From: a bacterium
GTDB lineage: Bacteria; Patescibacteriota; Microgenomatia; Daviesbacterales; UBA10151
DNA length: 36,242 nucleotides
Direction of reading: 5' to 3'
Assembly (NCBI GenBank): GCA_021786315.1
Contig: JAJYNN010000002.1
Coordinates: forward strand, 166,160 to 202,401
The position numbers and the translations under genes are program-made. Position 1 is the stretch's first letter. The number at the start of each line of letters is the position of its first letter. Below the pieces are notes generated by a model. It saw only the letters and a program-made list of their open reading frames with translations. It did not search any database and was not told where the DNA came from. This document shows positions 3,681 to 31,449 of this stretch, one piece after another.

Positions 3681-4319
3681 ATGGCTAAAGTGCTGCTGAT
3701 TGAAGATGAAAAAGCAATGTCCGACCTCATTGCCTTAAAGTTTAAGGTCGAGAACTTCGAAGTTGACCAGGCCTTTAATTTTGCTGAGGCTAAAGAGAAA
3801 CTGACTGCCGGGACCTACGACGCAATTCTGACTGATTACCTCCTTCCCGACGGGGATTTAACCGAGTTTTTAACCGGTGTCCGGGCTGATTCCAAATTCC
3901 AAAGTCTGCCTGTCATCGTTATGACCAATTACGTTGAGGATGTTAACCAGGAGAAGCTTAAATCTTTGGGGGTTTCGGAAATTATTGTGAAGTACCAGGT
4001 AGTGCCGGCCCAGATGGTTGATAAAATCAAGGCTTTGATCGTCAATACTGCTACAACTGCCCCGGCAGCCCCTGCCCCGAACCAGGGCGAAGCGATCGGT
4101 TCAGGGCCTGCAGCTGGGACGCCCGCTCCGGGAGTACCCCAAGCTGCACCCGCAGCTGCTGCACCTGCTCAACCAGTGGCTGCTCCCGCTCCGGTTGAGC
4201 CTGTAGCTCCAGCTGAACCAGTGGTTCCGGTGGCCGCGGCGCCTGCTCCTGAACCTGCTGCCACACCTGCACCTGCTCAACCTGCCTTAGATGTAAATCC
4301 CGAGCAGGTAAGTAATTAG
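3681..4319 (+). CDS. Response regulator with a receiver (REC) domain only and a ~95-aa Pro/Ala-rich C-terminal tail
   Basis: KVLLIEDEKAMSDL..., phospho-acceptor context AILTDYLLPDG, and VIVMTN..., followed by the low-complexity APAAPAP...PAPAQP tail. ATG 3681 is preferred over TTG 3606. Confidence 0.88.
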   Translation: MAKVLLIEDEKAMSDLIALKFKVENFEVDQAFNFAEAKEKLTAGTYDAILTDYLLPDGDLTEFLTGVRADSKFQSLPVIVMTNYVEDVNQEKLKSLGVSEIIVKYQVVPAQMVDKIKALIVNTATTAPAAPAPNQGEAIGSGPAAGTPAPGVPQAAPAAAAPAQPVAAPAPVEPVAPAEPVVPVAAAPAPEPAATPAPAQPALDVNPEQVSN

Positions 4320-4322
4320 CTC

Positions 4323-4592
4323 ATGGACCAGAATTCTCAATACCAAAACGTTTTGACTGATTTAATTAAAAAACAGATGGTCATGCTGGGGCCGAATGTG
4401 GCCTTGGGCCAGGCCAGGAAGGTTGCCGGAATTACCGTGGGGGATGACGGGACAGTAACCGCCATTTCCGGTGACCCCCAGGCAGTGCTTTCCGCCGTGG
4501 CCAAACAATACATCTCCCTTTCCGGAGCCATTGCCCAGATGACTTTGGACTCTTTAATTGCCAAATATCCGGATGTTAAGATTACTACATAG
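4323..4592 (+). CDS. Small hypothetical protein (89 aa), operonic between the response regulator and the histidine kinase
   Basis: ATG lies 3 nt after the response-regulator stop. No family recognised. Confidence 0.5.
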   Translation: MDQNSQYQNVLTDLIKKQMVMLGPNVALGQARKVAGITVGDDGTVTAISGDPQAVLSAVAKQYISLSGAIAQMTLDSLIAKYPDVKITT

Positions 4593-4595
4593 AGT

Positions 4596-4883
4596 ATGGG
4601 TACAGCAGAAATTATTGCCTGGATCGCGACTGTTTTAGCTTTGATTGTCAGCTTGCTGACAATGTTTAACGCGGCCAAATTAAAGACCGGGATTTTGGCT
4701 ATCTCCACTTATGCTTTTGGCGGGGGAATGCTCTTTTTGGCGGGATCCTTCCTACTGACGGCGCTTCCCTTAACGGTTGAGCCTGATTTGGCGGAACTGG
4801 TTTCCCGGATTTTATTCCTGGTGGGGTTTGTTCTCCTGGGCTTTGGTTCTTATAAGATCTATACCATGAGCCAAATAAAGTAG
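4596..4883 (+). CDS. Small integral membrane protein (95 aa, about 3 TM)
   Basis: ATG lies 3 nt after the previous stop. Three hydrophobic spans (IIAWIATVLALIVSLL, ILAISTYAFGGGMLFLAGSFLL, ILFLVGFVLLGFG). Confidence 0.55.
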   Translation: MGTAEIIAWIATVLALIVSLLTMFNAAKLKTGILAISTYAFGGGMLFLAGSFLLTALPLTVEPDLAELVSRILFLVGFVLLGFGSYKIYTMSQIK

Positions 4884-6789: not shown

Positions 6790-7698
6790 ATGATTAATAA
6801 GGCGCGTTTTTATTCAGCCATTACCTTGACTATCGCTCTCGGTCTTTTGGGCTACGCCTTAGGGGGAATCCTTCCCTTACCTGACCCCTTTACCACCACC
6901 AAAACCCGGGAAGTTTATGCCCTTCTGGGAGTTTTACTCAGTATTTTAATCTTTGCCCCCTTGTCTTCCTGGATCGTCAAAACCACCACCAAGCTGGCGG
7001 CTGAAGCCGTTTCTAAGGTTGCCTTGGAAATTATTAAGCACTTAACCACCCGCAGATTACCGGTCAATATTGAGACTGCAGCCCAGCTGGGGGTGCAGGA
7101 TGCCATAATCCTGGATACCTCAACTATTATTGACGGCAGGGTCCTGGAAGTGGCTAAAACGGGTTTTTTGTCAGGTTTGATACTGGTTCCCGACTTTGTT
7201 TTAAAGGAGCTGCAGCAGGTGGCAGATTCGGCTGACCACTTAAAAAGGTCCCGGGGAAGGCGGGGTTTTGAGGTTATGGGCGAGCTGAAAAAGATCAAGG
7301 GAATCAGGCTTCAGGTTTGGGAAGAGGCTTCCGCTACCTCTCCTTTAGGGAAAGAGGTGGATGATAAGTTGATGAATTTAGCCCAGACTGTCAAAGGAAA
7401 GATTTTAACCTGCGATTTCAACCTTTCCCAGGTGGCCAAAATCCGGGGGATCAAGGTTTTAAACCTGAACGAGCTTTCCAATTCCCTAAAGACTTTGCCT
7501 ATCCCCGGGGAAAAGTTGACCGTTAAAATCATGCACCAGGGAAAAGACCGTGACCAGGGGGTAGGGTATACCCTAGACGGGGTGATGATTGTAATTAAGG
7601 ATGGGGCAGCCTTTACCGGCAAAGAAATTGAGGCGGAAGTGACTAAAATTCTCCAGGGTTCCTCAGGCCGGATGATCTTCGGCAAAAAAGTTTCCTAG
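6790..7698 (+). CDS. PIN/TRAM-domain membrane protein (YacL-like)
   Basis: Two N-terminal TMs, a PIN-like IILDTSTIIDGRVLEVAKTGFLSG..VPDFVLKELQQVADS, and a C-terminal TRAM-like GEKLTVKIMHQGKDRDQGVGYTLDGVMIVIKDG. Confidence 0.82.
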   Translation: MINKARFYSAITLTIALGLLGYALGGILPLPDPFTTTKTREVYALLGVLLSILIFAPLSSWIVKTTTKLAAEAVSKVALEIIKHLTTRRLPVNIETAAQLGVQDAIILDTSTIIDGRVLEVAKTGFLSGLILVPDFVLKELQQVADSADHLKRSRGRRGFEVMGELKKIKGIRLQVWEEASATSPLGKEVDDKLMNLAQTVKGKILTCDFNLSQVAKIRGIKVLNLNELSNSLKTLPIPGEKLTVKIMHQGKDRDQGVGYTLDGVMIVIKDGAAFTGKEIEAEVTKILQGSSGRMIFGKKVS

Positions 7699-7740
7699 TT
7701 CAGATTAAATCTCTTGAATTGAAAAGGTATGTTTTTAAAT

Positions 7741-7950
7741 GCAACTTTGGTGGCAAAGTTGCGCAAAGCCACTTGCAGTGAAAGTCGACCTAAAACCTTC
7801 ATCAGTTGTCTAGCGGGAACTTTACCCTTCGGAAATTCGGCTACTTCGTAGCGTCAGTTTCCGCTTTCCCTGCTGCCAACTGACTTGGTTTTTTAACGGT
7901 CTTTGTTTCAATGCAAGGGGAATAGAAGTTTGAGTTCCAGTGGGCAAAAG
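7741..7950 (+). ncRNA. Structured intergenic element, copy 2 of 3
   Basis: Hairpin gcaacttt-GGTGGC-aaagttgc (7741-7762). Closing helix cttgca (7772-7777) / tgcaag (7912-7917). Helices cagttg (7803-7808) / caactg (7877-7882) and cggaaa (7830-7835) / tttccg (7858-7863). Small hairpin gcta-cttcg-tagc (7840-7852). Confidence 0.5.
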
Positions 7951-8114
7951 AAAACTTTATTGACTTATCCACATTAGCAGAAATCCCGGTGGAAAAGAAA
8001 AAGTGTGTCTTGGATTAGGGCTTTAGAACAAGATAAATAGTACCTAGTATCCTCCAAAATAAACTACAAGCCTATGGTTTTTTGCTAGTAAAAAAACTAT
8101 AAGGTTATAAAATG

Positions 8115-8143
8115 TTGACAAATAATTTTTTCTGTACTAATAT
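8115..8143 (+). promoter_or_regulatory. Strong sigma-70-like promoter with no CDS downstream
   Basis: TTGACA (8115-8120), 17-nt spacer, TAATAT (8138-8143). The next ORF of 60 aa or more starts more than 580 nt downstream and has its own promoter. Confidence 0.55.
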
Positions 8144-8149
8144 CTAATG

Positions 8150-8550
8150 GATGTTTAATTTTGGCCAAAAGTCAAAGGGGAGACTCACCAGAATTGCCCA
8201 AAAACGGATTGATCCGGGTTTGGAGCAAGTGAGAAAACTTTTGACGAGCAGCGACCAAAGGTTAATTCTGATGGTTCGAGGCTAAATCAAATTATAGGGG
8301 AGACATCGAAAAAGGTTCCTTGGAAGCAGACGGACCAAGGAATCTTTTTCGAGTACATTAAAAAAGACCACAAAAAAGAGCATTTAGATAGTTACTACCC
8401 GCCAGCAACTGCGTAGCTGTGGGCGGGGAACTATCGCAAGGCTCTTTTATTTGAGCACAAAAAAGAGCATTACTACCGCAGACGGACTCGAATAGCAATG
8501 CCCTTTATTAATTTCGAGAAGATGATTTTCGAGCAGAAAAATCATCTTTC
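8150..8550 (+). ncRNA. Candidate small RNA locus: a series of long hairpins downstream of the 8115 promoter
   Basis: Four hairpins: 8171-8245 (nested helices), 8306-8352 (18-bp stem), 8374-8448 (24 bp in 4 helices) and 8518-8549 (10-bp AT-rich stem followed by TTTC). No ORF of 60 aa or more. Confidence 0.4.
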
Positions 8551-8632
8551 TAAATAATAAGATTTCACATTTTGGAAGTCTTGTCAATAGGTCTTTTTAG
8601 GGAAAAAGGGAGTTGGGATTGTGATTTAGGTC

Positions 8633-8663
8633 GGGAATCCATCTAGGGCAGGGATGGGTTCCC
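8633..8663 (+). promoter_or_regulatory. Conserved hairpin with a GGGCAG loop upstream of the first LPxTG gene
   Basis: gggaatccatc-tagggcagg-gatgggttccc. A counterpart at 15454-15482 has compensatory stem changes. Confidence 0.45.
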
Positions 8664-8725
8664 AACTTGAGTCATAATCCCTTTTTTGTTTCTTAACCCA
8701 TAACCTCAAACACCCCAGATTTTAT

Positions 8726-8754
8726 TTGACAATGTGTGTGTCTTATAGTATTAT
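8726..8754 (+). promoter_or_regulatory. Sigma-70-like promoter abutting the A1 start codon
   Basis: TTGACA (8726-8731), 17-nt spacer, TATTAT (8749-8754), then 7 nt to ATG 8762. Confidence 0.55.
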
Positions 8755-8761
8755 AACTTCA

Positions 8762-9655
8762 ATGAAACGAGCAGTTCTTGCCTCTATTGCTTTAATTGCA
8801 GGCTCATTAGCCTTTGCCGGCGGTGTCAAAGCCGGTCTAGTCCCATATTTTGGTGGTGAATATACCAACCTTTACGGTTCAGGTACTAGCGCCACTGTCC
8901 ATACTGGCACCAATTGTGATCCTAATTCTGGTAGCTGTAGCGGTCCCGCGGTTTATAAGTACGTTTGTGATGGCCGCACTACCGACTGCCGTTCCAATGA
9001 AAGTTTTGGCACCAGCGGAAGCGTTTACACCTCTGAGTGCAACAAAACTGTCCAATTAGACGTCTTTAGCGGAAGCTGCAGGGGGGATAATAACCAATGG
9101 AACTGCGGCGACAATTCACTTATAGATTACATGGTTTGGTATTCCGGAGCTTGCAGTGCTCCGGCTCCTACTGCCGTGCCGACTGCAGTTCCGACCATCC
9201 CGGTAATCGTGGCTACACCAACCCCTACCCCTATAGTTGAAGCTCCTGCGCCTATAACTACCCAGGAATGTCCTGCCGGTACAGTTTACGGGGGAATTTC
9301 CGGATCCAATATTATTTGTGTCCAGCAGGTCCAAGAGCAGACCCAAAACGCCGTGGCCAACGCCAACGCAGCTACCGGAGCTATCACTATCAATGTCCCC
9401 AACAATAACTCACCGGTTATCCGTTCAGTCAGTTTTGTAGTTCCTACTCCACAAGTAGTTTTGGCTGCTACTGAGCAAAAAACTGCTGTAGTGACCACTA
9501 CCGAGCTTCCTAAGACCGGTTTACCATTTGCCGCCTGGGGTTTAACCGGCTTGGCTCCTGTAGGTTTTGGGCTGAGAAAATTCGGCGCCTTTAAGAAACT
9601 TGGCGCTGATACCGCTTCCTTCATCTGGCAGAAACGGGAGTTCGAAAGGAACTAA
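8762..9655 (+). CDS. Secreted Cys-rich LPxTG-type surface protein, paralog A1
   Basis: Signal peptide MKRAVLASIALIAGSLAFAGGVKA, Cys-rich head, PT linker, CPAG..GSNIICVQQ..QNAVANANAATGAITINVP module, then LPKTG + TM + RKFG + FIWQKREFERN tail. ATG 8762 is preferred over TTG 8726, which is the promoter -35 box itself. Confidence 0.8.
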   Translation: MKRAVLASIALIAGSLAFAGGVKAGLVPYFGGEYTNLYGSGTSATVHTGTNCDPNSGSCSGPAVYKYVCDGRTTDCRSNESFGTSGSVYTSECNKTVQLDVFSGSCRGDNNQWNCGDNSLIDYMVWYSGACSAPAPTAVPTAVPTIPVIVATPTPTPIVEAPAPITTQECPAGTVYGGISGSNIICVQQVQEQTQNAVANANAATGAITINVPNNNSPVIRSVSFVVPTPQVVLAATEQKTAVVTTTELPKTGLPFAAWGLTGLAPVGFGLRKFGAFKKLGADTASFIWQKREFERN

Positions 9656-9661
9656 CCTCCT

Positions 9662-10528
9662 ATGTCTAGAGAATCTGAGCAGAGATTCCAAAAAGCTATT
9701 GTTGTGGGAAGAATTGCCTCAGCTGTAGTGGCTCCTGCAATACCTTTAGTGCTTCCACATTTTGTTAATGCTGATACTTCCGCTTCCAGTTCCCATACTT
9801 ACAATATCGGCAGTGAGTCACCGGTAGAGAAGCTGATGCGTGAGCTGGGTGTGGTAAGTGTTGCTGAAGCTGCTGATCCAGTATGCACTTTAAGAGAGGT
9901 GGAAATTGCCGGTGATAAACTAAAGAAAAATCCCCGCACCGGACAAAATTTTGGCGTTTTTGTTGTTGGCAGGGATAAAAAAACCGTTCTTGCCCAAAGT
10001 CGATTAGATGATCAAGGACATGCCAGTATACGCTCTATTACTGCTGCTTGTGATATGGAGAATGGGACAGCTTTAGGTTATTGGGTTTTTCTTGAGGACA
10101 GAGATAGACAGGGGAAAGAATTTGTTACGCCGAATAACGCTAAAGAACAAATAGACTCCGCTCTAATAGCGTTATCCACCGATTTTGAGCCTAAGACACC
10201 TCCCTTACCAACTGTAACCCAGGCTGCTAGTAAATTAGAGCCTACTACCACTCCAACAAAGACTCCGGTTGTTGGACCTGTTAGACCGGTTGCGACTGTA
10301 ACACCTGCTCCAAGCGGACCAGTTGGTCCAAGAAATCCCGGAACTGGGCGAACGGATTGGCAGCAAACACTCCTTGATTTCGTTGATACTCCAGCTCGGA
10401 TCCTTGCTCCGAATGCCAACTCAGGAACCAAAGTGTGGATAGATATTTTGGGAGACATCATCCTGCTAAGTGGTGTAGGCTTTGTTGCTGCGGGGATGGT
10501 TTGGGGAATCAGAAGGATTTTTCATTAA
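9662..10528 (+). CDS. Membrane protein B1 (N-terminal signal/anchor, Pro-rich segment, C-terminal TM), partner of A1
   Basis: N-terminal hydrophobic IASAVVAPAIPLVLPHFVNA and C-terminal TM ILGDIILLSGVGFVAAGMVWGIRRIFH. Starts 6 nt after the A1 stop. Confidence 0.7.
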   Translation: MSRESEQRFQKAIVVGRIASAVVAPAIPLVLPHFVNADTSASSSHTYNIGSESPVEKLMRELGVVSVAEAADPVCTLREVEIAGDKLKKNPRTGQNFGVFVVGRDKKTVLAQSRLDDQGHASIRSITAACDMENGTALGYWVFLEDRDRQGKEFVTPNNAKEQIDSALIALSTDFEPKTPPLPTVTQAASKLEPTTTPTKTPVVGPVRPVATVTPAPSGPVGPRNPGTGRTDWQQTLLDFVDTPARILAPNANSGTKVWIDILGDIILLSGVGFVAAGMVWGIRRIFH

Positions 10529-10530
10529 TT

Positions 10531-11439
10531 ATGAAAAAGATATTATTGACCATTATTGCTTTAACTTTGATTTTGGTTTTTAAAAGCCCTAGTTCAGTTT
10601 TGGCTTTTGATTTACCCGATGGTGATGTATGGGGTGATGGAGGAGTGGCTTGTAATGAAGTTAAAAGAACCCCCTATCCTCAATGTGCCGGTACTGTTGG
10701 TTTAGAGGATAAAACGAAATATTCTGTGGGAGATACAATCTTAGTAACCCCAATCGAAGATTGTTATGGGAACCTCATCCGTTATGACACTCAAAATTAT
10801 GGAAACTTAGGTCAGTGTGGTGTGCCTGCTCCGGGAACCGGAAGCACGGGATCTCCTTCTACAGTAGTCTCTGCTCCGGGTAGCGGCAGTCCGATGACCA
10901 TTCCGGTGGTAGTGGCTCCTTCCCAAAACCAAGAATCAATGTCCATTCCAATAGTTGTGGCTCCGGCAGCCCCTAACCAAAATCAAAACACTACACCAAA
11001 CCAGGGTACTGTCCCTGGTGTAACTCCCACACCAACTTTGGGGGTTGTTTCTCCTGTAACTTCTAATATCCAGTCTTGTCCGGCCGGCACCGTTTGGGGT
11101 GGGGTAGAGGGCTCAAATATCATCTGTGTCCAGCAAAACCAATCCCAGACCCAAAATGCCGTGGCCAATGCCAACGCTTATACTGGTGCCATCACTATCA
11201 ATGTCCCCAATACCCAAAGCGGACCCCGGGTAGTGGAGAGTGTTAAAGTCCTGCCGGCCCAAAATGTCGTTTTGGCCGGGACAACCACCCTTCCGAAAAC
11301 CGGGTTGCCGTTTGCCGCCTGGGGTTTAACCGGACTTGCGCCTTTGGGGTTTAAGTTGCGCCGGTTTGGCGATTTAACTAAACCGGGTACAGGACTTGCT
11401 CAATATCTCTGGCAAAGCCGGGAATTTAACCGAGGCTAA
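10531..11439 (+). CDS. Secreted LPxTG-type surface protein, paralog A2
   Basis: Signal peptide MKKILLTIIALTLILVFKSPSSVLA, CPAGTVWGGVEGSNIICVQQ..QNAVANANAYTGAITINVP, then LPKTG + TM + YLWQSREFNRG. ATG lies 2 nt after the B1 stop, so the 10435 extension is rejected. Confidence 0.8.
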   Translation: MKKILLTIIALTLILVFKSPSSVLAFDLPDGDVWGDGGVACNEVKRTPYPQCAGTVGLEDKTKYSVGDTILVTPIEDCYGNLIRYDTQNYGNLGQCGVPAPGTGSTGSPSTVVSAPGSGSPMTIPVVVAPSQNQESMSIPIVVAPAAPNQNQNTTPNQGTVPGVTPTPTLGVVSPVTSNIQSCPAGTVWGGVEGSNIICVQQNQSQTQNAVANANAYTGAITINVPNTQSGPRVVESVKVLPAQNVVLAGTTTLPKTGLPFAAWGLTGLAPLGFKLRRFGDLTKPGTGLAQYLWQSREFNRG

Positions 11440-11512
11440 AGCTAACACTTCTAATAAAGTTATTACCTTTTCTTTCCTCTCCTCTTAAGATTATGGGTTA
11501 AGCTTGTAACTT

Positions 11513-12946
11513 GTGAAAGAGAGATCTGTTGGGCGTATAGTCAGCAGGGCGGTTGCCGTGGGGGCAATAACCGTAGGAATGGGGGCTTATGACTATCTCC
11601 ACCCTCCGGTAACGGATGCCGCCCCTGATCCCTTAAGCCCTGCTTCCACCTCCCGCCAATTCCGGGACTGTCTGACCGGTTTCCGGGTGATTTTACCTGC
11701 AGGCACCAGGGCGACCATCGATATGGAAGATGTAGCAACGGGCGAGAGGGTGGCTTCCCAAAGCGTAATTAACGACCAAAAAGTTTCCTTTAACGTCAAC
11801 TCCAACACCACTATGCCCGATGGGCGTCCGGGTTTTAGGGGCAGAATCTTTAACGATGCCATTCCGGAGACAAAACTGGATACCCTGGCTGCCTGTGGGG
11901 AGAGGGCGGTTGTCGAGTTTGGCCGAAGTCCGGGGGTCCCTCCTATCACACCTCCCGGAATTCCTACCCCCATCAATCCTTTTCCTCCCGGCCCGGAAAA
12001 TCCGGACATTAATATCAATTCCAACAGGGTGGATGTTAATGCTTCAAGCGTGGTGATTACCGCCACCAACCCGTTTACCGGAACCGGGACAACTATTGAA
12101 GCAGGGACTGCCGACAGCGGCGAAAATTTCCGCCGGTGGTGGTGGCTGCCGGCCAGTATTATAACTGCCGGCTTTTTGGCTGGCTGGTGGCATGTTTTGG
12201 GTGGAGGGAGAGAGACAGTGGTAGTCAGAAGACCTTACCCGCCAGGTGAAGCCCCGTCCCGGGCTCCGGGTGAACCAGTTCCCCCCCGCGGGCCTTATCC
12301 TCCGGAAAGGACTGCCCGCCCGGTGGTTGTCCCCGAAAAAGGAAGAAGGAGATGGAGGTGGCCTTGGGAAAAGAGGGAAGCGGTTGACGAAGAGACAATC
12401 AGGGAAACCGAAGTTCAAAAAACCACCGGCGAGAAAACGGCCGGTGTTAAAACCACGGAAAAGACTGTCAGGGTAGAGGACACGCAAAAGGAGAATGCTG
12501 ATTTGAAAAAAGACATCCAGACCAAGGATATCGCTGTCCAGAACTTGGAAAAGCAAAACCAAAACCAGAAAAAGATGATTGAGGAAACTATTGTATCCAA
12601 ACAGGATGTCCAGTCAAAGTTGGATGAGAAGGAAGAGGAGAACAGGAAGCTGAAGGCGACGATAGATAAGTTAAAGAAGACTCCGGGGAGTGCGGCGGCG
12701 AAAGAGCCAAAAGTCGCCAAGGAAACGGCCGGTAAAAATGCCGGGAAGGGAGCTGCCGGGAGGGGTAAAGAGCCTGCGAAGACGCAAACCAAGGCTGCCG
12801 GAAGCACAAACAAGGCTGTAGCCCAGGCAGGGCAGACAATAGAAAAGGCCGGAGAAAAAATATCCAAAGCCGGAGAAAAGATTGAAAAAACAGAGGAGAA
12901 AAGGACTGGCGGAACGAGGAGGCGACAAGGGAGAGGCCCGGCATGA
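11513..12946 (+). CDS. Bitopic membrane protein B2: exported domain, Trp-rich TM, Arg/Pro-rich then coiled-coil Lys/Glu-rich cytoplasmic tail
   Basis: GTG start. N-terminal anchor IVSRAVAVGAITVGMGAY, mid TM WWWLPASIITAGFLAGWWHVLGG, and a heptad-like ENADLKKDIQTKDIAVQNLEKQNQNQKKMIEE...KLKATIDKLKK. The TGA stop overlaps the A3 start (ATGA). Confidence 0.7.
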   Translation: MKERSVGRIVSRAVAVGAITVGMGAYDYLHPPVTDAAPDPLSPASTSRQFRDCLTGFRVILPAGTRATIDMEDVATGERVASQSVINDQKVSFNVNSNTTMPDGRPGFRGRIFNDAIPETKLDTLAACGERAVVEFGRSPGVPPITPPGIPTPINPFPPGPENPDININSNRVDVNASSVVITATNPFTGTGTTIEAGTADSGENFRRWWWLPASIITAGFLAGWWHVLGGGRETVVVRRPYPPGEAPSRAPGEPVPPRGPYPPERTARPVVVPEKGRRRWRWPWEKREAVDEETIRETEVQKTTGEKTAGVKTTEKTVRVEDTQKENADLKKDIQTKDIAVQNLEKQNQNQKKMIEETIVSKQDVQSKLDEKEEENRKLKATIDKLKKTPGSAAAKEPKVAKETAGKNAGKGAAGRGKEPAKTQTKAAGSTNKAVAQAGQTIEKAGEKISKAGEKIEKTEEKRTGGTRRRQGRGPA

Positions 12947-13812
12947 AGCTATTATTGGGGTTTTTAGTACTAATTTTAGGGTCTATTCCAACTACCGCCT
13001 TTGCCCAGCAGATAGGTACGGAACCGATAGACGGAACAGATTTGGTGCCGATTGCCCAAGTAGACAGCAATCCTTTTTCGGGAACGGACTTGGTGCCAAT
13101 TGGCCAGGTGGGGACAGAGCCTATTTCGGGAACTGGGGTGATCCCTGTGGGACAAGTGGGGACGGAAGTAATTCCTACGCCTATACCTCAGCCCCCGGTG
13201 ATCCAACCGCCCCCGGTGGTGGTTGTGCCTCAGCCGCTTCCCGCCCCCATTCCTATCAACAACACTTTTAATCCGACGATAAATAACTCACCCGCTTTTA
13301 ATAATGCCGTGGATATCAGTAATACGCTGGCCCAGGCTCAGTCCCAAAGGCAGGGCCAAAATGCCATTGCCAATGCCAATGCCAGAACAGGCCCCATCAC
13401 CATTAATGCCCCGGCTGCTCAGCCCCAGGTCGTGACTGCGGTCCAGCCGGTCCAACCCATACAAACTGTCCAGAGTGTTCCGGTGCAGGTAGTCCAAAGT
13501 GTTCCCCAGCCGGCGGAAACCATTCCGATTGTGGTGGCTCCGGCGACCCAGACTGTCCCGGTGCAAACTACCCAGCAGGTCCAAACAACGCCTGTTACCC
13601 AGGTAGCCCAAAAGACTCCGGTGGTAACTTCCACAGGAACTGCTCCGGTGGCGGTCCAGCAGCTGCCCCAAACCGGGCCTCCCGCAGCAGCCTGGGCGCT
13701 TTCAGGATTGATCCCCTTCGGGTTACGGTTACGCAGCTTTGGCAAAAAAGTTCAGGGGGATGAAAACAACCCCAGCTTTATCTGGCAAAAAAGGGAATTT
13801 GATAAAAATTAA
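12943..13812 (+). CDS. Secreted LPxTG-type surface protein, paralog A3
   Basis: Signal peptide MKLLLGFLVLILGSIPTTAFA, GT(E/D)(P/L)I repeats, QNAIANANARTGPITINAP, then LPQTG + TM + FIWQKREFDKN. Confidence 0.8.
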   Translation: MKLLLGFLVLILGSIPTTAFAQQIGTEPIDGTDLVPIAQVDSNPFSGTDLVPIGQVGTEPISGTGVIPVGQVGTEVIPTPIPQPPVIQPPPVVVVPQPLPAPIPINNTFNPTINNSPAFNNAVDISNTLAQAQSQRQGQNAIANANARTGPITINAPAAQPQVVTAVQPVQPIQTVQSVPVQVVQSVPQPAETIPIVVAPATQTVPVQTTQQVQTTPVTQVAQKTPVVTSTGTAPVAVQQLPQTGPPAAAWALSGLIPFGLRLRSFGKKVQGDENNPSFIWQKREFDKN

Positions 13813-13880
13813 ATTCTCAATTTTAAATTTCTAATGAATTTTCGATGTCTTAATGTTTAAAAATTGGTAATTAAAAATTT
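13813..13880. repeat. AT-rich intergenic word-repeat block
   Basis: attctcaattttaaatttctaatgaattttcgatgtcttaatgtttaaaaattggtaattaaaaattt. Shares a ~37-nt segment with 3541-3577. Confidence 0.6.
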
Positions 13881-13987
13881 ACATAACCCTTACCCTATCT
13901 TGTCAGTCTTCTTAAAGAATATAGCTACTCTTGTCCTAAAGCTATTTAAGGATGATAGCTGAAATTTATTGCTTTTTCTTTTGATTT

Positions 13988-15352
13988 ATGGGTAGACAAG
14001 AACAAGGCCAAGAGCAGGAACCAACCATAGCTTCCGTTTACGGCATTAAAAAAGACAGGAGTTTCAAACACGGGGCTATAGTGGCCTTAAGAATATTTCT
14101 TGGCGGCGTTTTGGCGACGGAGTTTGCCGCTGCTTCCGGCTGGAATCCTTTTGATGTATTTAATACCCAGCCCGATACCACACCTCGTGTTGCCTCGACT
14201 GACCCGCCAAAGGCAACCCCGGAGGGGTGGAGTTTGGCAAATACCGCTACACCAACGGCAACCGGCACCGCTTTGGCGGTCGCATCTTTGGCCGGGGATT
14301 GGGTTTCAGCTGTCGGTTATGCTGCTCCCCGGGGCGCGGAAGATATCCATGAATCTTCGAACTTTATCAACTTGGATTGTAGCAATATCGGCAACGGTGA
14401 CCCGGCAACGCCGGAGGAGCTGGTCCAGTGCATCCAGCAGAGTACCCTGGAAAGGGGTTTCTTTGAAGCTGCCGGAGCCAATGTCGACGAGTTTGATACA
14501 AGCAACGTTTTGAGTAAGGTTGCCTATAAGGATTTGGCGGAAGATTTGGCGGCCAAGGATTTAATTGATGAAGAGGCGGCCCGGGATATTTTAGGGGTAG
14601 TGGGGGAGACTAGGACGATGACTTTTAGGAAAATTCTTTCTGAGGGGAAGATAGTTTTGGGAACTGCGCCGGTAACCTTAGTTGATTACCCGACGACCAG
14701 GCGTGATGAACTGGATGTCAATGAGCTGTTTTGGGAAGTGATCTTTCAGGCCGGGGACGTCCGGAAGCTGGCTTTTGTGGAGGATCTCTGTGAAAATCCG
14801 ATGGGACTTATTATTACTGCTCCCGAAGTTACTCCCACCCCGACGCCAACTCCGACAGAAATACCGCCGGCCCCCGGACCAGGACCCGGACCCGGCCCAG
14901 GACCAGAAGCCACCGCTACACCCCAAACACCACCTGGGCCAACGGCAACGCCAACCCGGGAAGCAACTGCTACCCCACAGCCGGTGCCGGAAACACCAAC
15001 TCCTACGCCGCCTACGGGGGCTCCAACTCCTACCCGCGAAGCCACTGCCACACCTCAGCCCCGGCCTGAAGTGACAGCCACCAGAGAGGCGACTGCCACC
15101 CCTCAACCTGTACCGGATACTCCGGTGCCTACCTCTGTGCCAACCAGGGAAGCAACTGCTACCCCTGATCCGCCAACTCCGGTTCCCACCACCGCTCCGG
15201 CCCCGACATCTGTTCCCACTTCTGCCCCGACGAAAGAACCCACCGCCGTTCCAATCCCCACGGCTGTGCCGACTTCTGCGCCGACTGCAGTCCCAACTAC
15301 CGCCCCGACAGCGGCGCCAACCAGGGAGCCTGGTGCCACCCCCAGCCATTAG
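13988..15352 (+). CDS. Membrane-anchored protein B3 with a long Pro/Thr-rich repetitive C-terminal half
   Basis: N-terminal TM GAIVALRIFLGGVLATEFAAA, a globular domain, (GP)x5, and four REATATP(Q/D)P repeats. Confidence 0.7.
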   Translation: MGRQEQGQEQEPTIASVYGIKKDRSFKHGAIVALRIFLGGVLATEFAAASGWNPFDVFNTQPDTTPRVASTDPPKATPEGWSLANTATPTATGTALAVASLAGDWVSAVGYAAPRGAEDIHESSNFINLDCSNIGNGDPATPEELVQCIQQSTLERGFFEAAGANVDEFDTSNVLSKVAYKDLAEDLAAKDLIDEEAARDILGVVGETRTMTFRKILSEGKIVLGTAPVTLVDYPTTRRDELDVNELFWEVIFQAGDVRKLAFVEDLCENPMGLIITAPEVTPTPTPTPTEIPPAPGPGPGPGPGPEATATPQTPPGPTATPTREATATPQPVPETPTPTPPTGAPTPTREATATPQPRPEVTATREATATPQPVPDTPVPTSVPTREATATPDPPTPVPTTAPAPTSVPTSAPTKEPTAVPIPTAVPTSAPTAVPTTAPTAAPTREPGATPSH

Positions 15353-15453
15353 GTGGCTCTTTCTCACAAGATTATTACATGAATTTTGTTTTATTTTTAT
15401 CTAGAGATAGTAATCTGATATCTAGCGAAGAAAGGAACATGAAAATTGTCTAG

Positions 15454-15482
15454 GGAGTTCATCCCGGGCAGTGATGAGCTCC
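15454..15482 (+). promoter_or_regulatory. Conserved hairpin with a GGGCAG loop upstream of the fourth LPxTG gene
   Basis: ggagttcatc-ccgggcagt-gatgagctcc, 22 nt upstream of ATG 15505. Counterpart of 8633-8663. Confidence 0.45.
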
Positions 15483-15504
15483 TTAAACAATCTTCATATA
15501 TATA

Positions 15505-16569
15505 ATGATTAGCAAAATATTACGTAAAAAGATTTTTCCTTTAATAGCAGCCGCTTTATTTACTTTGGGTATTGGAGGTACTCAGTTTTTAAATGCTACC
15601 CCGGCATATGCCAACACCACATTCCAGGGCGGTAACTTTTACCTTGATTCCAATACCAATAGCCCGGCCTGGGTTGATCCGGTAACAGCCAATGTGGGGG
15701 ATATTATTGAATTCCATATGGAGATCGATAATACGGGAGCGGAGACGGCCCAGTATGTCAAAGTCCAGGCGACATTCCCAGCTAATGTTTCGGGTACCCA
15801 GTTGGTGTCTACAGCCACGGTGACGGCGGACAACGCCTCCTCGATGACCGATACGGCCACGATTAACGTCAACTCTTCCTCGATTCCGTCGGGAGCCACC
15901 ATAAGCCTGGTTTATTTCCCCGGCCATGCGACCTTGATTACCCATCCGGGGAATGTAACTTCCTCGATTGAGCAAATCGGCACAGGCGGTGTGACTTCCA
16001 TCGGCAGCCTTAATGCAGGTTCAAATGTCTTTGCCGAGGTGCTTTTCAAGGCTCAGATTGTGGCTAACGTCAGCCCGACTGAGACGCCGACACCTACCCC
16101 GACTATAACCGTAACCCCGACTGTAACCGTAACGCCGACTCCCACCGGAACCATCGCTCCAACCCCGACTACCGGTCAAGGTAATGTGGTTTCCTGTCCG
16201 GAAGGCTTTGTCTCGGTAGTGTCCGGATCCAACATTATCTGTATGCAGCAGGTAAACAACCAGTCGGTCAATGTGACCAACAACAATAATAATACCAACA
16301 ACAACAGCGCCACCGGGGGGTCGTCTAACAACACCAACAACATTACCGTGAAGGCTGCAGCCGCTGCCGCAGCAGCTCCTACCCCGGCGCCCGTTGCCTC
16401 TTCAGTCCCTGCTGTTACCCAGTTGCCCAGAACCGGGCTTCCGATGGGGGCATGGCTGCTTTCAGGACTTTTACCGGGAGGGCTTGGCATTAGAAGGTTA
16501 ACCAAGAGGGGACAAGGGAATTCCGACAGCGCCACTTATATCTGGCAAAAAAGAGACTTCGACAAGTAA
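15505..16569 (+). CDS. Secreted LPxTG-type surface protein, paralog A4 (DUF11-like N-terminal domain)
   Basis: Signal peptide ...LNATPAYA. NVGDIIEFHMEIDNTGAETAQYVKVQATFP resembles the DUF11 conserved repeat domain. Then CPEGFVSVVSGSNIICMQQ, an Asn-rich run, and LPRTG + TM + YIWQKRDFDK. Confidence 0.8.
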   Translation: MISKILRKKIFPLIAAALFTLGIGGTQFLNATPAYANTTFQGGNFYLDSNTNSPAWVDPVTANVGDIIEFHMEIDNTGAETAQYVKVQATFPANVSGTQLVSTATVTADNASSMTDTATINVNSSSIPSGATISLVYFPGHATLITHPGNVTSSIEQIGTGGVTSIGSLNAGSNVFAEVLFKAQIVANVSPTETPTPTPTITVTPTVTVTPTPTGTIAPTPTTGQGNVVSCPEGFVSVVSGSNIICMQQVNNQSVNVTNNNNNTNNNSATGGSSNNTNNITVKAAAAAAAAPTPAPVASSVPAVTQLPRTGLPMGAWLLSGLLPGGLGIRRLTKRGQGNSDSATYIWQKRDFDK

Positions 16570-16659
16570 TAATTTAATTCTCAATTTTACAATTTTCAAT
16601 TTTTAAATAATTTTCAAAATCTAAATTTCCAAACAGCTTGAAAATTCGGTCATTGAAAA
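16570..16659. repeat. AT-rich word-repeat block between convergent genes
   Basis: ctcaattttacaattttcaatttttaaataattttcaaaatctaaattt...cttgaaaattcggtcattgaaaatt. The forward and inverted words can pair, so it could act as a bidirectional terminator. Confidence 0.55.
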
Positions 16660-17535
16660 TTACGCTTCCTTCGCAATCCTGTGGCCTTTTCTATGGATGA
16701 GCTTGATTGTTATAAAGAAGAAGATAATGGCGTACAAGACCCCGCTTAAAATGTCTGAAACGTAATGTTCCCCTAAATAGACAACTGAAAACCAAACCCC
16801 CAAGACATAGGGGATAAAGAGGAGGCCTTTTTTGCCGAAGATGGAAACGGCAAAAAGCAGGACCAGGAAGGGATAGGCGGCATGCATGGAAGGGACAGCC
16901 GCCACCATATTGGGGTTCATGTTGTGGTAAAAGGTCGGCAGATCAGCCACCGCCGGGAAAGCGCCTAAAGTCTGGTCCATGATTTTAGTGAGCCCGGTTA
17001 AAAGCCCTTTTTGGGCAGCCATCCAGGGGGGAGCGGCAGGAAAAATAACATAAGTAGCCCAGGCGGCATAGGACATTAGAGATATTCCGGTAATAAATTC
17101 CTTAAAAAATTGGCGTTTGTAGAGCCAAAGCGCGTAGCCAAAAGCCAGGGGCAGGGCAAAGTGGAGGAAATAAAAGATGGTGGCCGTGTAGTCGTACCAG
17201 GCTAAAGACCCGGGATGGAAGATGTGGGATTGCAGCCAGACGGAAGGATTAACCCCAAAAATAATCTGGTCAAATTGAAGCTGGGGAAGGTAATTGACCC
17301 GGGGGTTTAAGACCCCGGCAAATCCCCGCAGCCAATCATAAGAGAGGATTAAAAACAAAAAAGGTATCCAGTCCAAGACAAATGACTTGACCCTTTTAAT
17401 AAAGACGGCGGAAATCAGAAGGACAAACATATAGCGGTCGGGGGCAATGCCAATCCCGAGCTTAATCATCAAAGCTGTGGTGGCTACAATATAGACCACA
17501 AAGAGGGCAATAATAAAGGCGTGGTGCTTTTGCAT
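16660..17535 (-). CDS. PAP2-superfamily polytopic membrane protein (PAP2_3 / Aur1-like)
   Basis: Multiple TMs. The motifs PSMHAAYP and GEHYVSDILSG match the C2/C3 phosphatase motifs of PAP2-type enzymes. Confidence 0.72.
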   Translation of the reverse strand: MQKHHAFIIALFVVYIVATTALMIKLGIGIAPDRYMFVLLISAVFIKRVKSFVLDWIPFLFLILSYDWLRGFAGVLNPRVNYLPQLQFDQIIFGVNPSVWLQSHIFHPGSLAWYDYTATIFYFLHFALPLAFGYALWLYKRQFFKEFITGISLMSYAAWATYVIFPAAPPWMAAQKGLLTGLTKIMDQTLGAFPAVADLPTFYHNMNPNMVAAVPSMHAAYPFLVLLFAVSIFGKKGLLFIPYVLGVWFSVVYLGEHYVSDILSGVLYAIIFFFITIKLIHRKGHRIAKEA

Positions 17536-24930: not shown

Positions 24931-25617
24931 TTACTCTTCGATTACTAAGGGGTAAATCAAATTTGAGATTTCATTGTTATCTGTTTGCCCTACAAAGGAT
25001 TTATAGGAAAGCTTGGGATTTGTTTGGGAAAAGAATGCCAGAATCTCATCTGGTTTAACCCAAGCCCCTTGATGACTACCCAAATATGCTGGGTAGGAAG
25101 ATGGTTGGCCTTGGCCGCTTAAACTATATTTGTCAAAGGATTGTTTATGGATATAGCGGGAAAGTTCCAAAAGCTGGGCATCTGTTTGGACTAAAACAGC
25201 TTTGTAGGTCCCCTGGTAGAGTGCTCCCACCCGCTTGTATTTTTTATTAAAGTACATGGTATATCTTGTACCTAAAGAGTTCATAAACTTATCAATAGCT
25301 CCGGCACTTTTTTGTTTAACCAAAAGGTGAAAATGGTTGGGCATTAGGCAATAGGCGAGAAGGGTAATATCATCTGCAAAGTTATTCATCCTGATCTGTT
25401 TTCTTAGCCCGTCTCTTTCGGGAATGGGTGTTCGGGGGTTTGCTAATTGTTCCATTAAGGAAACACTATCCTTGGGTGTCAGATAAGTTTTTAGGTAGGA
25501 GATAAAGACTGAATAGTCCTGTTGGTCCTGGAAGATGGAGCGCTTTTCAACCCCTCTATTATATATATGGTAGTAACCCTCTTCGACATATTGTTTAACT
25601 ACATTTTTTGCTGGCAT
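24931..25617 (-). CDS. HUH / Y1 tyrosine transposase (IS200-like or REP-associated RAYT-like), 228 aa
   Basis: YHIYNRG N-terminal motif, HUH motif in LLAYCLMPNHFHLLV, and a catalytic-Tyr context SRYIHKQ. Confidence 0.82.
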   Translation of the reverse strand: MPAKNVVKQYVEEGYYHIYNRGVEKRSIFQDQQDYSVFISYLKTYLTPKDSVSLMEQLANPRTPIPERDGLRKQIRMNNFADDITLLAYCLMPNHFHLLVKQKSAGAIDKFMNSLGTRYTMYFNKKYKRVGALYQGTYKAVLVQTDAQLLELSRYIHKQSFDKYSLSGQGQPSSYPAYLGSHQGAWVKPDEILAFFSQTNPKLSYKSFVGQTDNNEISNLIYPLVIEE

Positions 25618-31048: not shown

Positions 31049-31074
31049 TAAATTTTCAAAACACAATTTTCAGT
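31018..31074. repeat. AT-rich word-repeat block overlapping the G1 start
   Basis: ttaattttcaatttaaaatttacaattttcattaaattttcaaaacacaattttcag. The first 11 codons of G1 (MKIVNFKLKIK) are encoded by it. Confidence 0.5.
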
Positions 31075-31449
31075 CTAGTCTCTTAAGGAAGAAACAATTT
31101 TCTGAAATATCATTGTTAATTCTTGTGCTTCTTGTCCTAGCAGCTCAATTTCTGTTTTCTTCTCTGGAAAACAAACAACCATCATTCTTAGCCAGTGTTT
31201 AGTTTCCTGGGCTTCTTTCTTGCAGATAAAAATCTTATTTTGAAAGTCTTTTTTTGAGCTTGCGCCGTTTGCTTCCATATAATTGGCTCCAATACTGGTT
31301 CCCGACCTAATAATTTGGCTTATAATTGGTGTTGAAATTAAATCTGATCTTAAGTTTTTACAAAAATTGATGATTTGTTCCCCAAACCGGCTTGTGCGTT
31401 CTTCAAGATCGTATTTTTTGGATTGTGAATTGTTTAATTGGTAATTCAT
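31075..31449 (-). CDS. Four-helix-bundle protein (TIGR02436 family, the so-called 23S rRNA intervening-sequence protein)
   Basis: Family-typical motifs RSGTSIGANYMEANGASSKKDFQNKIFICKKEAQETKHWL. Markedly AT-rich relative to the flanking genes. Confidence 0.82.
   Translation of the reverse strand: MNYQLNNSQSKKYDLEERTSRFGEQIINFCKNLRSDLISTPIISQIIRSGTSIGANYMEANGASSKKDFQNKIFICKKEAQETKHWLRMMVVCFPEKKTEIELLGQEAQELTMIFQKIVSSLRD

Follow-up and report, generated by a model that had tools for sequence, protein, structure and literature searches.

The region described here lies at positions 8726-16569 of a 36,242-nt stretch of Candidatus Daviesbacteria DNA (from a contig of 942,606 bp), which as a whole is called the window and whose positions are used for coordinates unless a related locus (numbered L001 and so on) is named. 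Analysis of the open reading frames (ORFs) of the window reveals seven genes on the plus strand in the alternating order A1-B1-A2-B2-A3-B3-A4, where the A genes code for putative wall-anchored proteins with an LPxTG motif and the B genes for predicted membrane proteins (Table 1). An earlier note on this DNA had listed this order together with three tight junctions, and all of them are confirmed by the ORF coordinates: A1 and B1 are separated by 6 nucleotides (nt), B1 and A2 by 2 nt, and B2 and A3 overlap by an ATGA (-4 nt). The remaining gaps measure 73 nt (A2/B2), 175 nt (A3/B3), and 152 nt (B3/A4). The relatives sampled comprise 24 genome loci and 64 metagenome loci encoding an A-type C-terminus, with 77 distinct A-type genes; other tallies are given over 92 related loci (sortase and site content) or over 94 loci (a conserved 37-mer). 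Hainich and Rifle are among the groundwater datasets in which related contigs originate.

The four A proteins are related to each other solely over their last ~140 amino acids (aa; BLASTP E-values from 3e-52 to 4e-11), and no mutual matches are found among their heads. By hydropathy, all of them carry an N-terminal Sec signal, with an M-K/R-rich start, 15-20 hydrophobic residues, and an AxA-like site. These data agree with the earlier description of proteins with a signal peptide, a common C-terminal region and unrelated heads, and confine the paralogy to the C-terminal part. The shared rear includes a Pro/Thr (PT)- or IPVVVAP-type linker, a Cys-x16-Cys loop (CPxG......GSNIIC), a Q/N stretch (QQxQxQTQNAxANANAxTGxITIN), and the LPxTG motif, followed by an 18-residue hydrophobic segment starting with GLPxxAW, an R/K-R/K-F-G motif, a spacer, and a terminal (F/Y)(I/L)WQ(K/S)R(E/D)F. 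Linkers and stalk had both been put forward as common to the A proteins: IP(V/I)VVAP linkers (repeat family D8) are indeed found in A1-A3 and the stalk Cys pair in A1, A2, and A4, but the stalk of A3 is degenerate and has no Cys. The exported parts of A1, A2, A4, B1, and B2 all have even Cys counts. Recent duplication or gene conversion among the A genes was rejected, as their shared modules are only 64-84% identical at the DNA level. The 3' flanks of A3 (13803-13830) and A4 (16567-16594) share at 86% identity a 28-nt AT-rich sequence, TAA(A/T)AATT(A/T)AATTCTCAATTTTA, possibly a common 3' end or terminator element.

Concerning the heads, A1 consists of its signal peptide, a Cys-rich head with 10 Cys, a PT linker, the Cys-loop/Q-N stalk, and an extended LPKTG signal. 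Orthologs of A1 occur in Daviesbacteria, its 41 homologs are nearly all labelled Candidatus Daviesbacteria, and the A family is limited to this group and neighbouring Microgenomates. In an AlphaFold2 (AF2) model of A1 based on a 22-sequence alignment, residues ~30-135 of the head are beta-rich with a predicted local distance difference test (pLDDT) score of 85-95, the stalk and tail being of low confidence; Foldseek returned no structural match for this head in the PDB (best E 0.42) or BFVD (best E 0.15). A2 has a small Cys-module head, which resembles those of L068_8369 (E 3e-11) and L077_268 (E 8e-10), followed by two IPVVVAP linkers, the stalk, and an LPKTG signal. The head of A3 is made of short acidic GT(E/D)xI/VP repeats (D10 repeat) and a P/V/Q-rich region, and precedes the degenerate stalk and an LPQTG signal. 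Finally, A4 (354 aa) carries an immunoglobulin (Ig) head of DUF11/CLIPPER type, a PT linker, the stalk, and an LPRTG signal. The resemblance of this head to DUF11, already proposed in the earlier note, finds support in a match to PF01345 (E 2.5e-4), although its 21.8 bits stay below the 24.6-bit gathering cut-off. A relative, L001_4155, carries the PF01345 annotation, and the A4 head itself is likely a distant, unconfirmed member of the DUF11/CLIPPER group. It belongs to a cluster of 18 heads, whose identity to A4 goes down to ~31%.

In A1-A4 the LPxTG motif is followed by 18 hydrophobic residues and then by RK, RR, or RS, as in sortase substrates. Typical LPXTG substrates have a short charged tail of 5-10 residues, whereas the tails in the window are 25-26 residues long. 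Across the family, LPKTG is present in 71 of 75 signals, the hydrophobic segment has a median length of 18 aa, and the tail a median of 27 aa (range 19-46). The tail-end consensus is (F/Y)(I/L)W(Q/E)x(R/K)(E/Q)F; a strict W[QE]x[RK][EQ][FWY] end is found in 40 of the 75 members, and most others are one residue off. The curated models PF00746 and TIGR01167 do not match the isolated A C-termini even at E<=10, nor the full proteins at E<=1, and we therefore describe the A proteins as LPXTG-like substrates with a clade-specific extended signal. This signal (LPKTG, GLPxxAW, ~27-residue tail, WQKREF) is a previously undescribed variant of the clade.

No sortase domain or TLxTC motif is present among the ORFs of the 36-kb window. 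The absence had been presented as striking; it is real, yet ordinary, since 91 of the 92 related loci likewise lack a sortase, and housekeeping sortases are normally unlinked to their substrate genes. The sole exception is L051, where 51 nt separate a sortase gene (4074-4763; PF04203, E 4.5e-21) from the A-type gene downstream of it. This case, together with the sortase reported in a complete Microgenomates genome (PMC7143001), lends support to sortase processing. Judging from their signals, A1-A4 are most likely cleaved at LPxTG and anchored covalently to the wall by a sortase encoded elsewhere.

All three B proteins carry a hydrophobic segment at the N-terminus and contain Pro/Thr-rich stretches, and B1 and B2 possess a second membrane segment (at aa ~262 and ~212, respectively), all of which bears out what had been read from them before; B3 has no C-terminal membrane segment. 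B1 and B2 contain exactly two Cys each (75/130 and 53/128), of which the second is part of an 'AAC'. The similarity between these two proteins that had been suspected by eye is not supported statistically: no significant similarity is found among B1, B2, and B3 (best BLASTP E 0.64; hhalign probability <1%), and their homology to each other was rejected. Searches of Pfam, NCBIfam, and PDB sequences returned no significant match to known families for any of the three, so that they do not fall into the well-known unrelated families that the earlier note had regarded as an argument against a link to the A proteins. A TrbI match on B2 was dismissed (E 0.0033, 17.7 vs 35 bits). No RR, as in the twin-arginine motif (S/T-R-R-x-F-L-K) that precedes the hydrophobic region of Tat-exported proteins, occurs within the first 60 residues of B1, B2, or B3; RRxFL-like motifs are present in several proteins at the partner position of other loci.

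B1 (288 aa) is composed of an N-terminal hydrophobic segment, an AEAADPVC motif, a two-Cys beta-rich ectodomain, a Pro/Thr linker, and a C-terminal membrane helix with a short basic tail after it. A word-index search of a 5.8-billion-protein database leaves it an orphan, and its sole relative among 1.8 billion representative proteins is P0044 (E 4e-6), colinear with it from signal to tail. An AF2 model of B1 from this two-sequence alignment, with a pLDDT of 37 and not used for fold search, can be read for its secondary structure only, which is that of an all-beta ectodomain plus C-terminal helix. The same architecture, with an xE(A/S)A-x0-4-C motif after the N-terminal hydrophobic segment, a beta ectodomain with the second Cys, a PT linker, a C-terminal membrane helix, and a basic tail, is found in L016_10414, L017_7665, L023_5751, L025_7853, L049_1245, L058_191, L090_7868, and L068_7159, which together with B1 we call the B1 class. 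The motif occurs 11 times among the 603 distinct ORFs of at least 150 aa in all loci, and nine of these occurrences belong to the class; the members in L049, L058, and L090 came to light only after its definition, and each of them adjoins an A gene. A single superfamily for B1-class proteins is not established, as hhalign reaches at most 70% probability, in alignments that include the linkers (70% for B1 plus P0044 against the L016/L023/L068 group, and 67% for L005_10375 against the L025/L049/L058/L090 group).

B2 (477 aa) has a hydrophobic segment at its N-terminus, followed by an ectodomain with two Cys, a Trp-rich membrane segment in the middle of the protein, and a cytoplasmic tail of 245 aa, which is first Pro-rich and then Lys/Glu-rich (coiled-coil-like). 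No homologs of B2 are found in 5.8e9 proteins. L005_10375 is an architectural analog: its ectodomain likewise has two Cys, its membrane segment is central and Trp-rich, and its cytoplasmic tail is long, charged, and Pro-rich. A 'WEKRE' in the tail of B2 recalls the 'WQKRE' of the A tails, but it was taken as a coincidence because other partner proteins do not show it. In B3, an N-terminal membrane anchor is followed by a conserved ~180-aa domain of alpha/beta type (aa ~100-285) with a conserved Cys and by a 170-aa Pro/Thr-rich tail holding TREATATPQP repeats (D4). We identified seven homologs of B3 (in L002, L005, L013, L029, L030, L080, and L085; 28-59% identity where BLAST aligns), and a second cluster of five Pro/Thr-rich partners (in L027, L032, L053, L059, and L076). 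The two groups match at 98.8% in a profile-profile comparison, which is only suggestive because the alignment takes in their biased Pro/Thr tails. B1-B3 thus fall into at least two architectural classes, a two-Cys type-I class including B1 and B2 and an N-anchored class with a long Pro/Thr tail including B3.

The array occupies a fixed chromosomal site, between a gene coding for a PIN/TRAM membrane protein, accompanied by a conserved small RNA, and rho. In relatives, the upstream side consists of radA (RadA-like), LytR_C, a response regulator, a histidine kinase, and the PIN/TRAM membrane protein, and the downstream side of rho, a LysM-M23 peptidase, and a gene of the beta-lactamase family; rho is the next gene after 32 of the 77 distinct A genes. 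From one genome to another, the genes between PIN/TRAM and rho differ in number and in kind, which therefore defines a variable island at a fixed site. Most relatives have just one or two A genes there.

Within these islands, the recurring unit is a B gene followed by an A gene. A non-A gene lies on the same strand within 60 nt upstream of 28 of the 77 distinct A genes, often overlapping, with typical spacings of -4 to 25 nt (L023 and L049, -4; L025 and L058, 3; L011 and L016, 4; L005, 5; L090, 9; L013, 12; L002, 17), while only five A genes are preceded by another A. The gaps from an A gene to the next gene are mostly above 60 nt, usually 70-180 nt. The B1/A2 (2 nt) and B2/A3 (-4) junctions of the window match this pattern. 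Moreover, the type of partner follows the type of head. All eight B3-family genes and all five genes of the second cluster are immediately upstream of A4-type heads (13/13), and conversely 15 of the 18 A4-type heads have a Pro/Thr-rich gene tightly upstream, the others being mostly at contig ends. Two-Cys B1-class proteins precede heads with a small Cys module like that of A2. A pair resembling B2 and A3 is found in one relative, where L005_10375 sits 5 nt upstream of L005_11700, whose head, like that of A3, combines short acidic repeats (GF(A/V)GEQIPL) with a P/V/Q-rich region. The island of L005 can then be written as [B3-like, A4-like][B2-like, A3-like], and that of the window as A1 [B1, A2][B2, A3][B3, A4].

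These observations support conserved, translationally coupled modules of at least two or three kinds, present in variable number at one hotspot. The view of the earlier note that the locus is more than a simple paralog array holds, as A/B adjacency is kept in relatives and the type of B co-varies with the A head. Its proposal of a duplicated two-gene module is right as to the module, but the unit is B-then-A, and the comparisons do not support the three modules being copies of one.

Table 1. Coordinates of the A and B genes and of associated features, in the window and in related loci
Feature	Sequence	Position	Strand	Remarks
A1	window	8762..9655	+	ATG start; the longest ORF begins at TTG 8726, the signal peptide at ATG 8762
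B1	window	9662..10528	+	upstream partner of A2
A2	window	10531..11439	+	starts 2 nt past the B1 stop
B2	window	11513..12946	+	upstream partner of A3
A3	window	12943..13812	+	ATGA overlap with the B2 stop
B3	window	13988..15352	+	upstream partner of A4
A4	window	15505..16569	+	last gene of the array
A1 extended sorting signal	window	9506..9655	+	LPKTG, GLPFAAW...GL (18 hydrophobic residues), RKFG, spacer, FIWQKREFERN
A2 extended sorting signal	window	11290..11439	+	LPKTG ... YLWQSREFNRG
A3 extended sorting signal	window	13663..13812	+	LPQTG ... FIWQKREFDKN
A4 extended sorting signal	window	16423..16569	+	LPRTG ... YIWQKRDFDK
Sigma-70-type promoter	window	8726..8754	+	TTGACA, 17 nt, TATTAT; ends 7 nt before the A1 ATG
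Two-hairpin small RNA candidate	window	8459..8556	-	~100 nt; upstream island border, divergent from A1
Same promoter arrangement (example)	L001	4120
Same promoter arrangement (example)	L010	399
Same promoter arrangement (example)	L016	10384
Same promoter arrangement (example)	L040	1848
Same promoter arrangement (example)	L052	6420
Same promoter arrangement (example)	L078	2973
Post-PIN/TRAM family member	L016	6532-7449
Post-PIN/TRAM family member	L021	5264-6253
Post-PIN/TRAM family member	L019	6832-7878
Post-PIN/TRAM family member	L011	6750-7754
Post-PIN/TRAM family member	L012	7214-8182

A1 follows a ~1-kb spacer and is preceded by a near-consensus promoter, the best match in the interval 7600-17000 (11/12). 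At least nine other loci have the same arrangement, TTGAC(A/T)...ATAGT..TA(T/A)AAT followed after 6-9 nt by an ATG, ahead of their first island gene, which can be an A or a B. Since the promoter ends so close to the A1 ATG, the A1 mRNA should be leaderless or near-leaderless, and the arrangement suggests strong leaderless expression of the first island gene. The arrangement also accounts for the spurious N-terminal extensions of the type 'MTxxLSYSII' that ORF calls and database entries (P0007, for example) display. A second promoter-like site (8115-8143; TTGACA-17-TAATAT) ends 7 nt before a 44-aa ORF (8151-8285), whose C-terminus (DQRLILMVRG) matches a 47-aa ORF in L003 (7674-7817); this may possibly be the gene of a conserved leaderless micro-protein.

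The spacer upstream of A1 also contains the conserved element that marks the border of the island. Of 94 loci, 50 contain a single exact copy of the 37-mer GAGCATTACTACCGCAGACGGACTCGAATAGCAATGC, which invariably precedes the island and has one orientation; the distance from the element to the first island gene downstream is always 150-450 nt. Its conservation is far above that of any protein of the locus, with conserved blocks spanning 8046-8700. On the minus strand it comprises a 3' hairpin of invariant sequence followed by a U7 run, and a 5' hairpin with a covarying stem and a conserved loop. Among 41 distinct sequences of the latter, with 25 different 5' arms, 10.9 of 12 pairs are canonical, as compared with 7.5 of 12 when arms are mismatched between sequences. 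When the minus strand is read in place of the plus strand, 36 A.C or C.A mismatches turn into G.U pairs, as compared with five the other way round; the minus strand also has the better fold (-33.1 kcal/mol, z -5.6, versus -21.7 kcal/mol, z -3.0, for the plus strand), and a conserved TTGACA box is present upstream of the element on that strand (8591-8586). Taken together, the G.U asymmetry, the better fold, the U7 run, and the TTGACA box point to a candidate small RNA of ~100 nt on the minus strand. No Rfam family reaches threshold, the best being ncr1015 (24.7 vs 60 bits) with a generic similarity of two hairpins plus terminator, and a riboswitch or other known RNA upstream of A1 was rejected on this ground. 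A phage origin of the invariant 37-mer was likewise rejected, as it is absent from viral contigs. The spacer holds two more hairpins (8306-8352 and 8609-8687), one with 18-nt arms of 94% complementarity and a loop AAGCAGACGGA that shares GCAGACGGA with the apex of the invariant hairpin, and the other with a loop CUAGGGCAGGGAUGG followed by T6; GCAG/GGA loop motifs recur among the spacer hairpins, for which a loop-binding protein such as CsrA would be a speculative explanation.

Several features of the surroundings deserve mention. Near the window edge, the RadA-like ORF (126-1007) codes for 293 aa corresponding to the ChlI/Lon_C part, as compared with 444-473 aa including an N-terminal Zn-ribbon and an AAA domain in relatives, and may be truncated, frameshifted, or mis-started. 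On the minus strand, two giant genes (25682-31066, 1794 aa; 31484-36082, 1532 aa) code for 6-7 LamG/concanavalin-like repeats each, matching PF13385 (E 1e-195 and 6e-153) and more weakly the neurotoxin receptor-binding-N and sialidase-N lectin folds; by these matches they are predicted to be further large surface-binding proteins close to the island. A 23S-rRNA-IVP-family gene (31075-31449) lies between them, and an IS200-like Y1 transposase gene (24931-25617, minus strand) adjoins them and is syntenic in L003 too. No mobile-element genes are present within the A/B island.

In some relatives, a further conserved family of 305-348 aa, absent from the window, directly follows the PIN/TRAM gene, and several of its members have canonical twin-arginine-like signals (TRRRFLEG, NRRQFLKG). 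Islands whose A protein has a small DUF11-type head display another layout, where an N-anchored protein comes directly after the A gene and very large polytopic membrane proteins of ~990 aa with 10 or more membrane segments come next (L001 5994-8975; L007 11454-16033; L009 12377-14221). These could be glycosyltransferase-like, and would make a different flavour of island, possibly tied to glycosylation of the Pro/Thr stalks.

Given the anatomy of the array, the paralogy of the A genes, the synteny, the conservation and co-variation of the pairs, and the non-standard sorting signal, we consider it probable that the region forms a hypervariable island for the cell surface, built from modules in which a membrane partner and a wall protein are translationally coupled, and located at a conserved chromosomal hotspot of Candidatus Daviesbacteria, a lineage of Microgenomates in the Candidate Phyla Radiation (CPR). 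A1-A4 would be secreted and linked covalently to the cell wall by a sortase encoded elsewhere, each presenting an interchangeable head on a conserved rear formed by the PT linker, a disulfide-closed Cys loop with the Q/N stalk, LPKTG, the 18-residue membrane segment, and a ~27-residue cytoplasmic tail. A1 is an unpaired first gene behind its own strong, probably leaderless promoter. B1-B3 would be membrane proteins of bitopic topology, their exported domain carried by a Pro/Thr-rich stalk. Each comes first in a translationally coupled pair (B1-A2, B2-A3, and B3-A4) and would act with the downstream A head at the surface, for instance as a membrane-tethered co-receptor, a docking factor, or an assembly factor made in fixed proportion with A. 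The island would in this way supply the variable attachment or recognition surface of the cell. As gene pairs of each kind recur in relatives, they are probably functional two-protein surface modules, and since the type of partner tracks that of the head, a B protein working with its A head would be the simplest reading of the coupling and co-variation. Physical interaction between A and B and an adhesive role are what we infer from the gene sequences, and 'adhesin' and 'dedicated partner' are to be understood in that sense.

Some observations weigh against this interpretation. The B3/A4 junction of the window is loose (152 nt), whereas the orthologous pairs of relatives are tight (12-27 nt). 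About half of the A genes of relatives have no tightly linked partner, which indicates that A function does not depend on a partner. The pairing of B1 and B2, both of them near-orphans, consequently relies on architectural analogs, not orthologs; homology among B1-class members is not established, and B2 stays below 14% hhalign probability versus everything. The co-variation could partly reflect co-inheritance of neighbours over a short evolutionary distance, though A4-type heads diverge down to ~31% identity. In addition, the sorting signal fails the curated LPXTG anchor models, and the genome's own sortase was not located, the window holding none.

In the main rival interpretation, the A and B genes would code for independent, co-regulated surface proteins that share operons at a recombination hotspot, their tight junctions being a product of compaction in a ~1-Mb CPR genome and not of partnership. 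We hold it to be a tentative possibility, on the unlikely side. In its favour, B proteins belong to several unrelated classes, many A genes are without a partner, two unpartnered LamG-repeat giants lie nearby, and short intergenic distances are common in the compact genomes of the CPR. Against it, however, stand the 13 of 13 B3-family or second-cluster genes upstream of A4-type heads, the systematically tighter junctions from B to A than from A to the next gene within the same operons, and the near exclusivity of the B1-class motif to genes abutting an A gene (9 of 11 hits among 603 ORFs). That B1 and B2 might not be real genes at all, but chance ORFs or decayed remnants between true A genes, is hardly credible: they have no homologs in the 5.8-billion-protein database, and the C-terminal half of B2 is of low complexity with long ORFs on the opposite strand, yet they span 288 and 477 codons with starts and stops coupled to their neighbours, display a coherent membrane topology with exactly two Cys in the exported part, have analogs at the same position in other genomes, and, in the case of B1, a colinear relative of the same architecture.

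Two further readings keep the link between A and B and change its meaning. The several tandem LPxTG genes could form a sortase-assembled pilus or fibre locus, with A1-A4 as pilin-like subunits and the B proteins as membrane assembly or base factors. The A4 head would fit, its CnaA-type (DUF11/CLIPPER) Ig domain being common in fibrillar adhesins and pilins (PMC12617251), and one related locus does have a sortase next to an A gene. A pilus is nonetheless very unlikely: the (Y/F)PK pilin motif is missing from A1-A4, both the window and 91 of 92 loci lack a pilus-type sortase, the heads bear no relation to each other, and in most relatives there are only one or two A genes. A conserved delivery or anchor part, a variable part, and a co-varying adjacent gene also recall the logic of polymorphic toxin/immunity loci, in which a toxin domain in the variable part is followed by a small cognate immunity gene downstream. 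The A heads would then be contact-dependent effectors or self-binding adhesins, and each B a cognate membrane protector against self-action. We give even less credence to this idea, since no toxin, nuclease, peptidase, or lipase domain was detected in any head, the fold of the A1 head finds no structural match, that of A3 consists of a short repeat region in place of a globular effector, and the partner is upstream, large (288-477 aa), and exported, unlike typical immunity proteins.

We thus retain the interpretation of coupled membrane-partner/wall-protein modules. It may be carried further, to B-then-A pairs that are co-evolving two-component recognition modules by which these ultra-small, probably host-dependent bacteria choose and hold partner cells or surfaces, with the wall-anchored A head and the membrane-tethered B ectodomain forming one receptor, the unusually conserved GLPxxAW...WQKREF piece that is cleaved off acting itself as a signal (to a dedicated sortase or to the syntenic histidine kinase/response regulator), and the invariant, divergent small RNA controlling cassette exchange or serving as a recombination landmark for it. 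Taken jointly, these propositions are speculative, and we regard them as unlikely.

CPR bacteria (Patescibacteria) make up a large share of bacterial diversity, and the cultivated ones live attached to other microbes; to our knowledge, little has been learnt of their attachment molecules apart from type IV pili. The locus offers a clade-wide family of putatively wall-anchored proteins with swappable heads, an extended sorting signal, and co-diversifying pairs of membrane partner and wall protein. Should the pairs be receptor modules, host range in an uncultured phylum could be approached directly through them; otherwise, the locus keeps its use as a marker of a hypervariable surface island and of a new small RNA.

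Such an organization can be compared with several known systems. Genomic islands may integrate next to tRNA or tmRNA genes, and the present island may be seen as analogous in having a variable content beside an invariant small RNA gene at a fixed site; however, it has no integrase, direct repeats, or mobility genes, and its small RNA is not a tRNA or tmRNA. The SusC/SusD systems of Bacteroidota consist of many paralogous two-gene modules whose members co-diversify and form a surface complex. The A/B pairs would be alike as co-diversifying modules, but the proteins are unrelated, the envelope is of a different type, and A/B are known from genes only. With the pilus islands of Gram-positive bacteria, the locus shares tandem LPxTG genes in one operon and one CnaA-like (DUF11/CLIPPER) head; it differs in its mutually unrelated heads, in having neither a pilin motif nor an adjacent pilus (class C) sortase, and in that the interleaved genes code for non-enzymatic bitopic membrane proteins.

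The closest likenesses concern the A proteins themselves. CLIPPER/DUF11 stalk domains occur in fibrillar adhesins (PMC12617251), and A4 shares with these a DUF11-resembling head and the layout of signal peptide, head, stalk, and sorting signal, but has one sub-threshold domain in a protein of 354 aa and is paired with a conserved upstream membrane protein. More generally, the A proteins resemble LPXTG sortase substrates in their signal peptide, LPxTG motif, ~18-residue hydrophobic segment, and basic residues, in their Ig-like or Cys-rich heads on Pro/Thr stalks, and in the usual lack of linkage to a sortase gene. They depart from them by a tail of 19-46 residues with a conserved end motif, by a membrane segment starting with GLPxxAW, by a signal that curated models do not match and that is preceded by a conserved Cys-loop/Q-N stalk, and by their restriction to Daviesbacteria and neighbouring Microgenomates. 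The locus is best placed among sortase-anchored surface proteins, of which it is a clade-specific variant organized with co-varying membrane partners.

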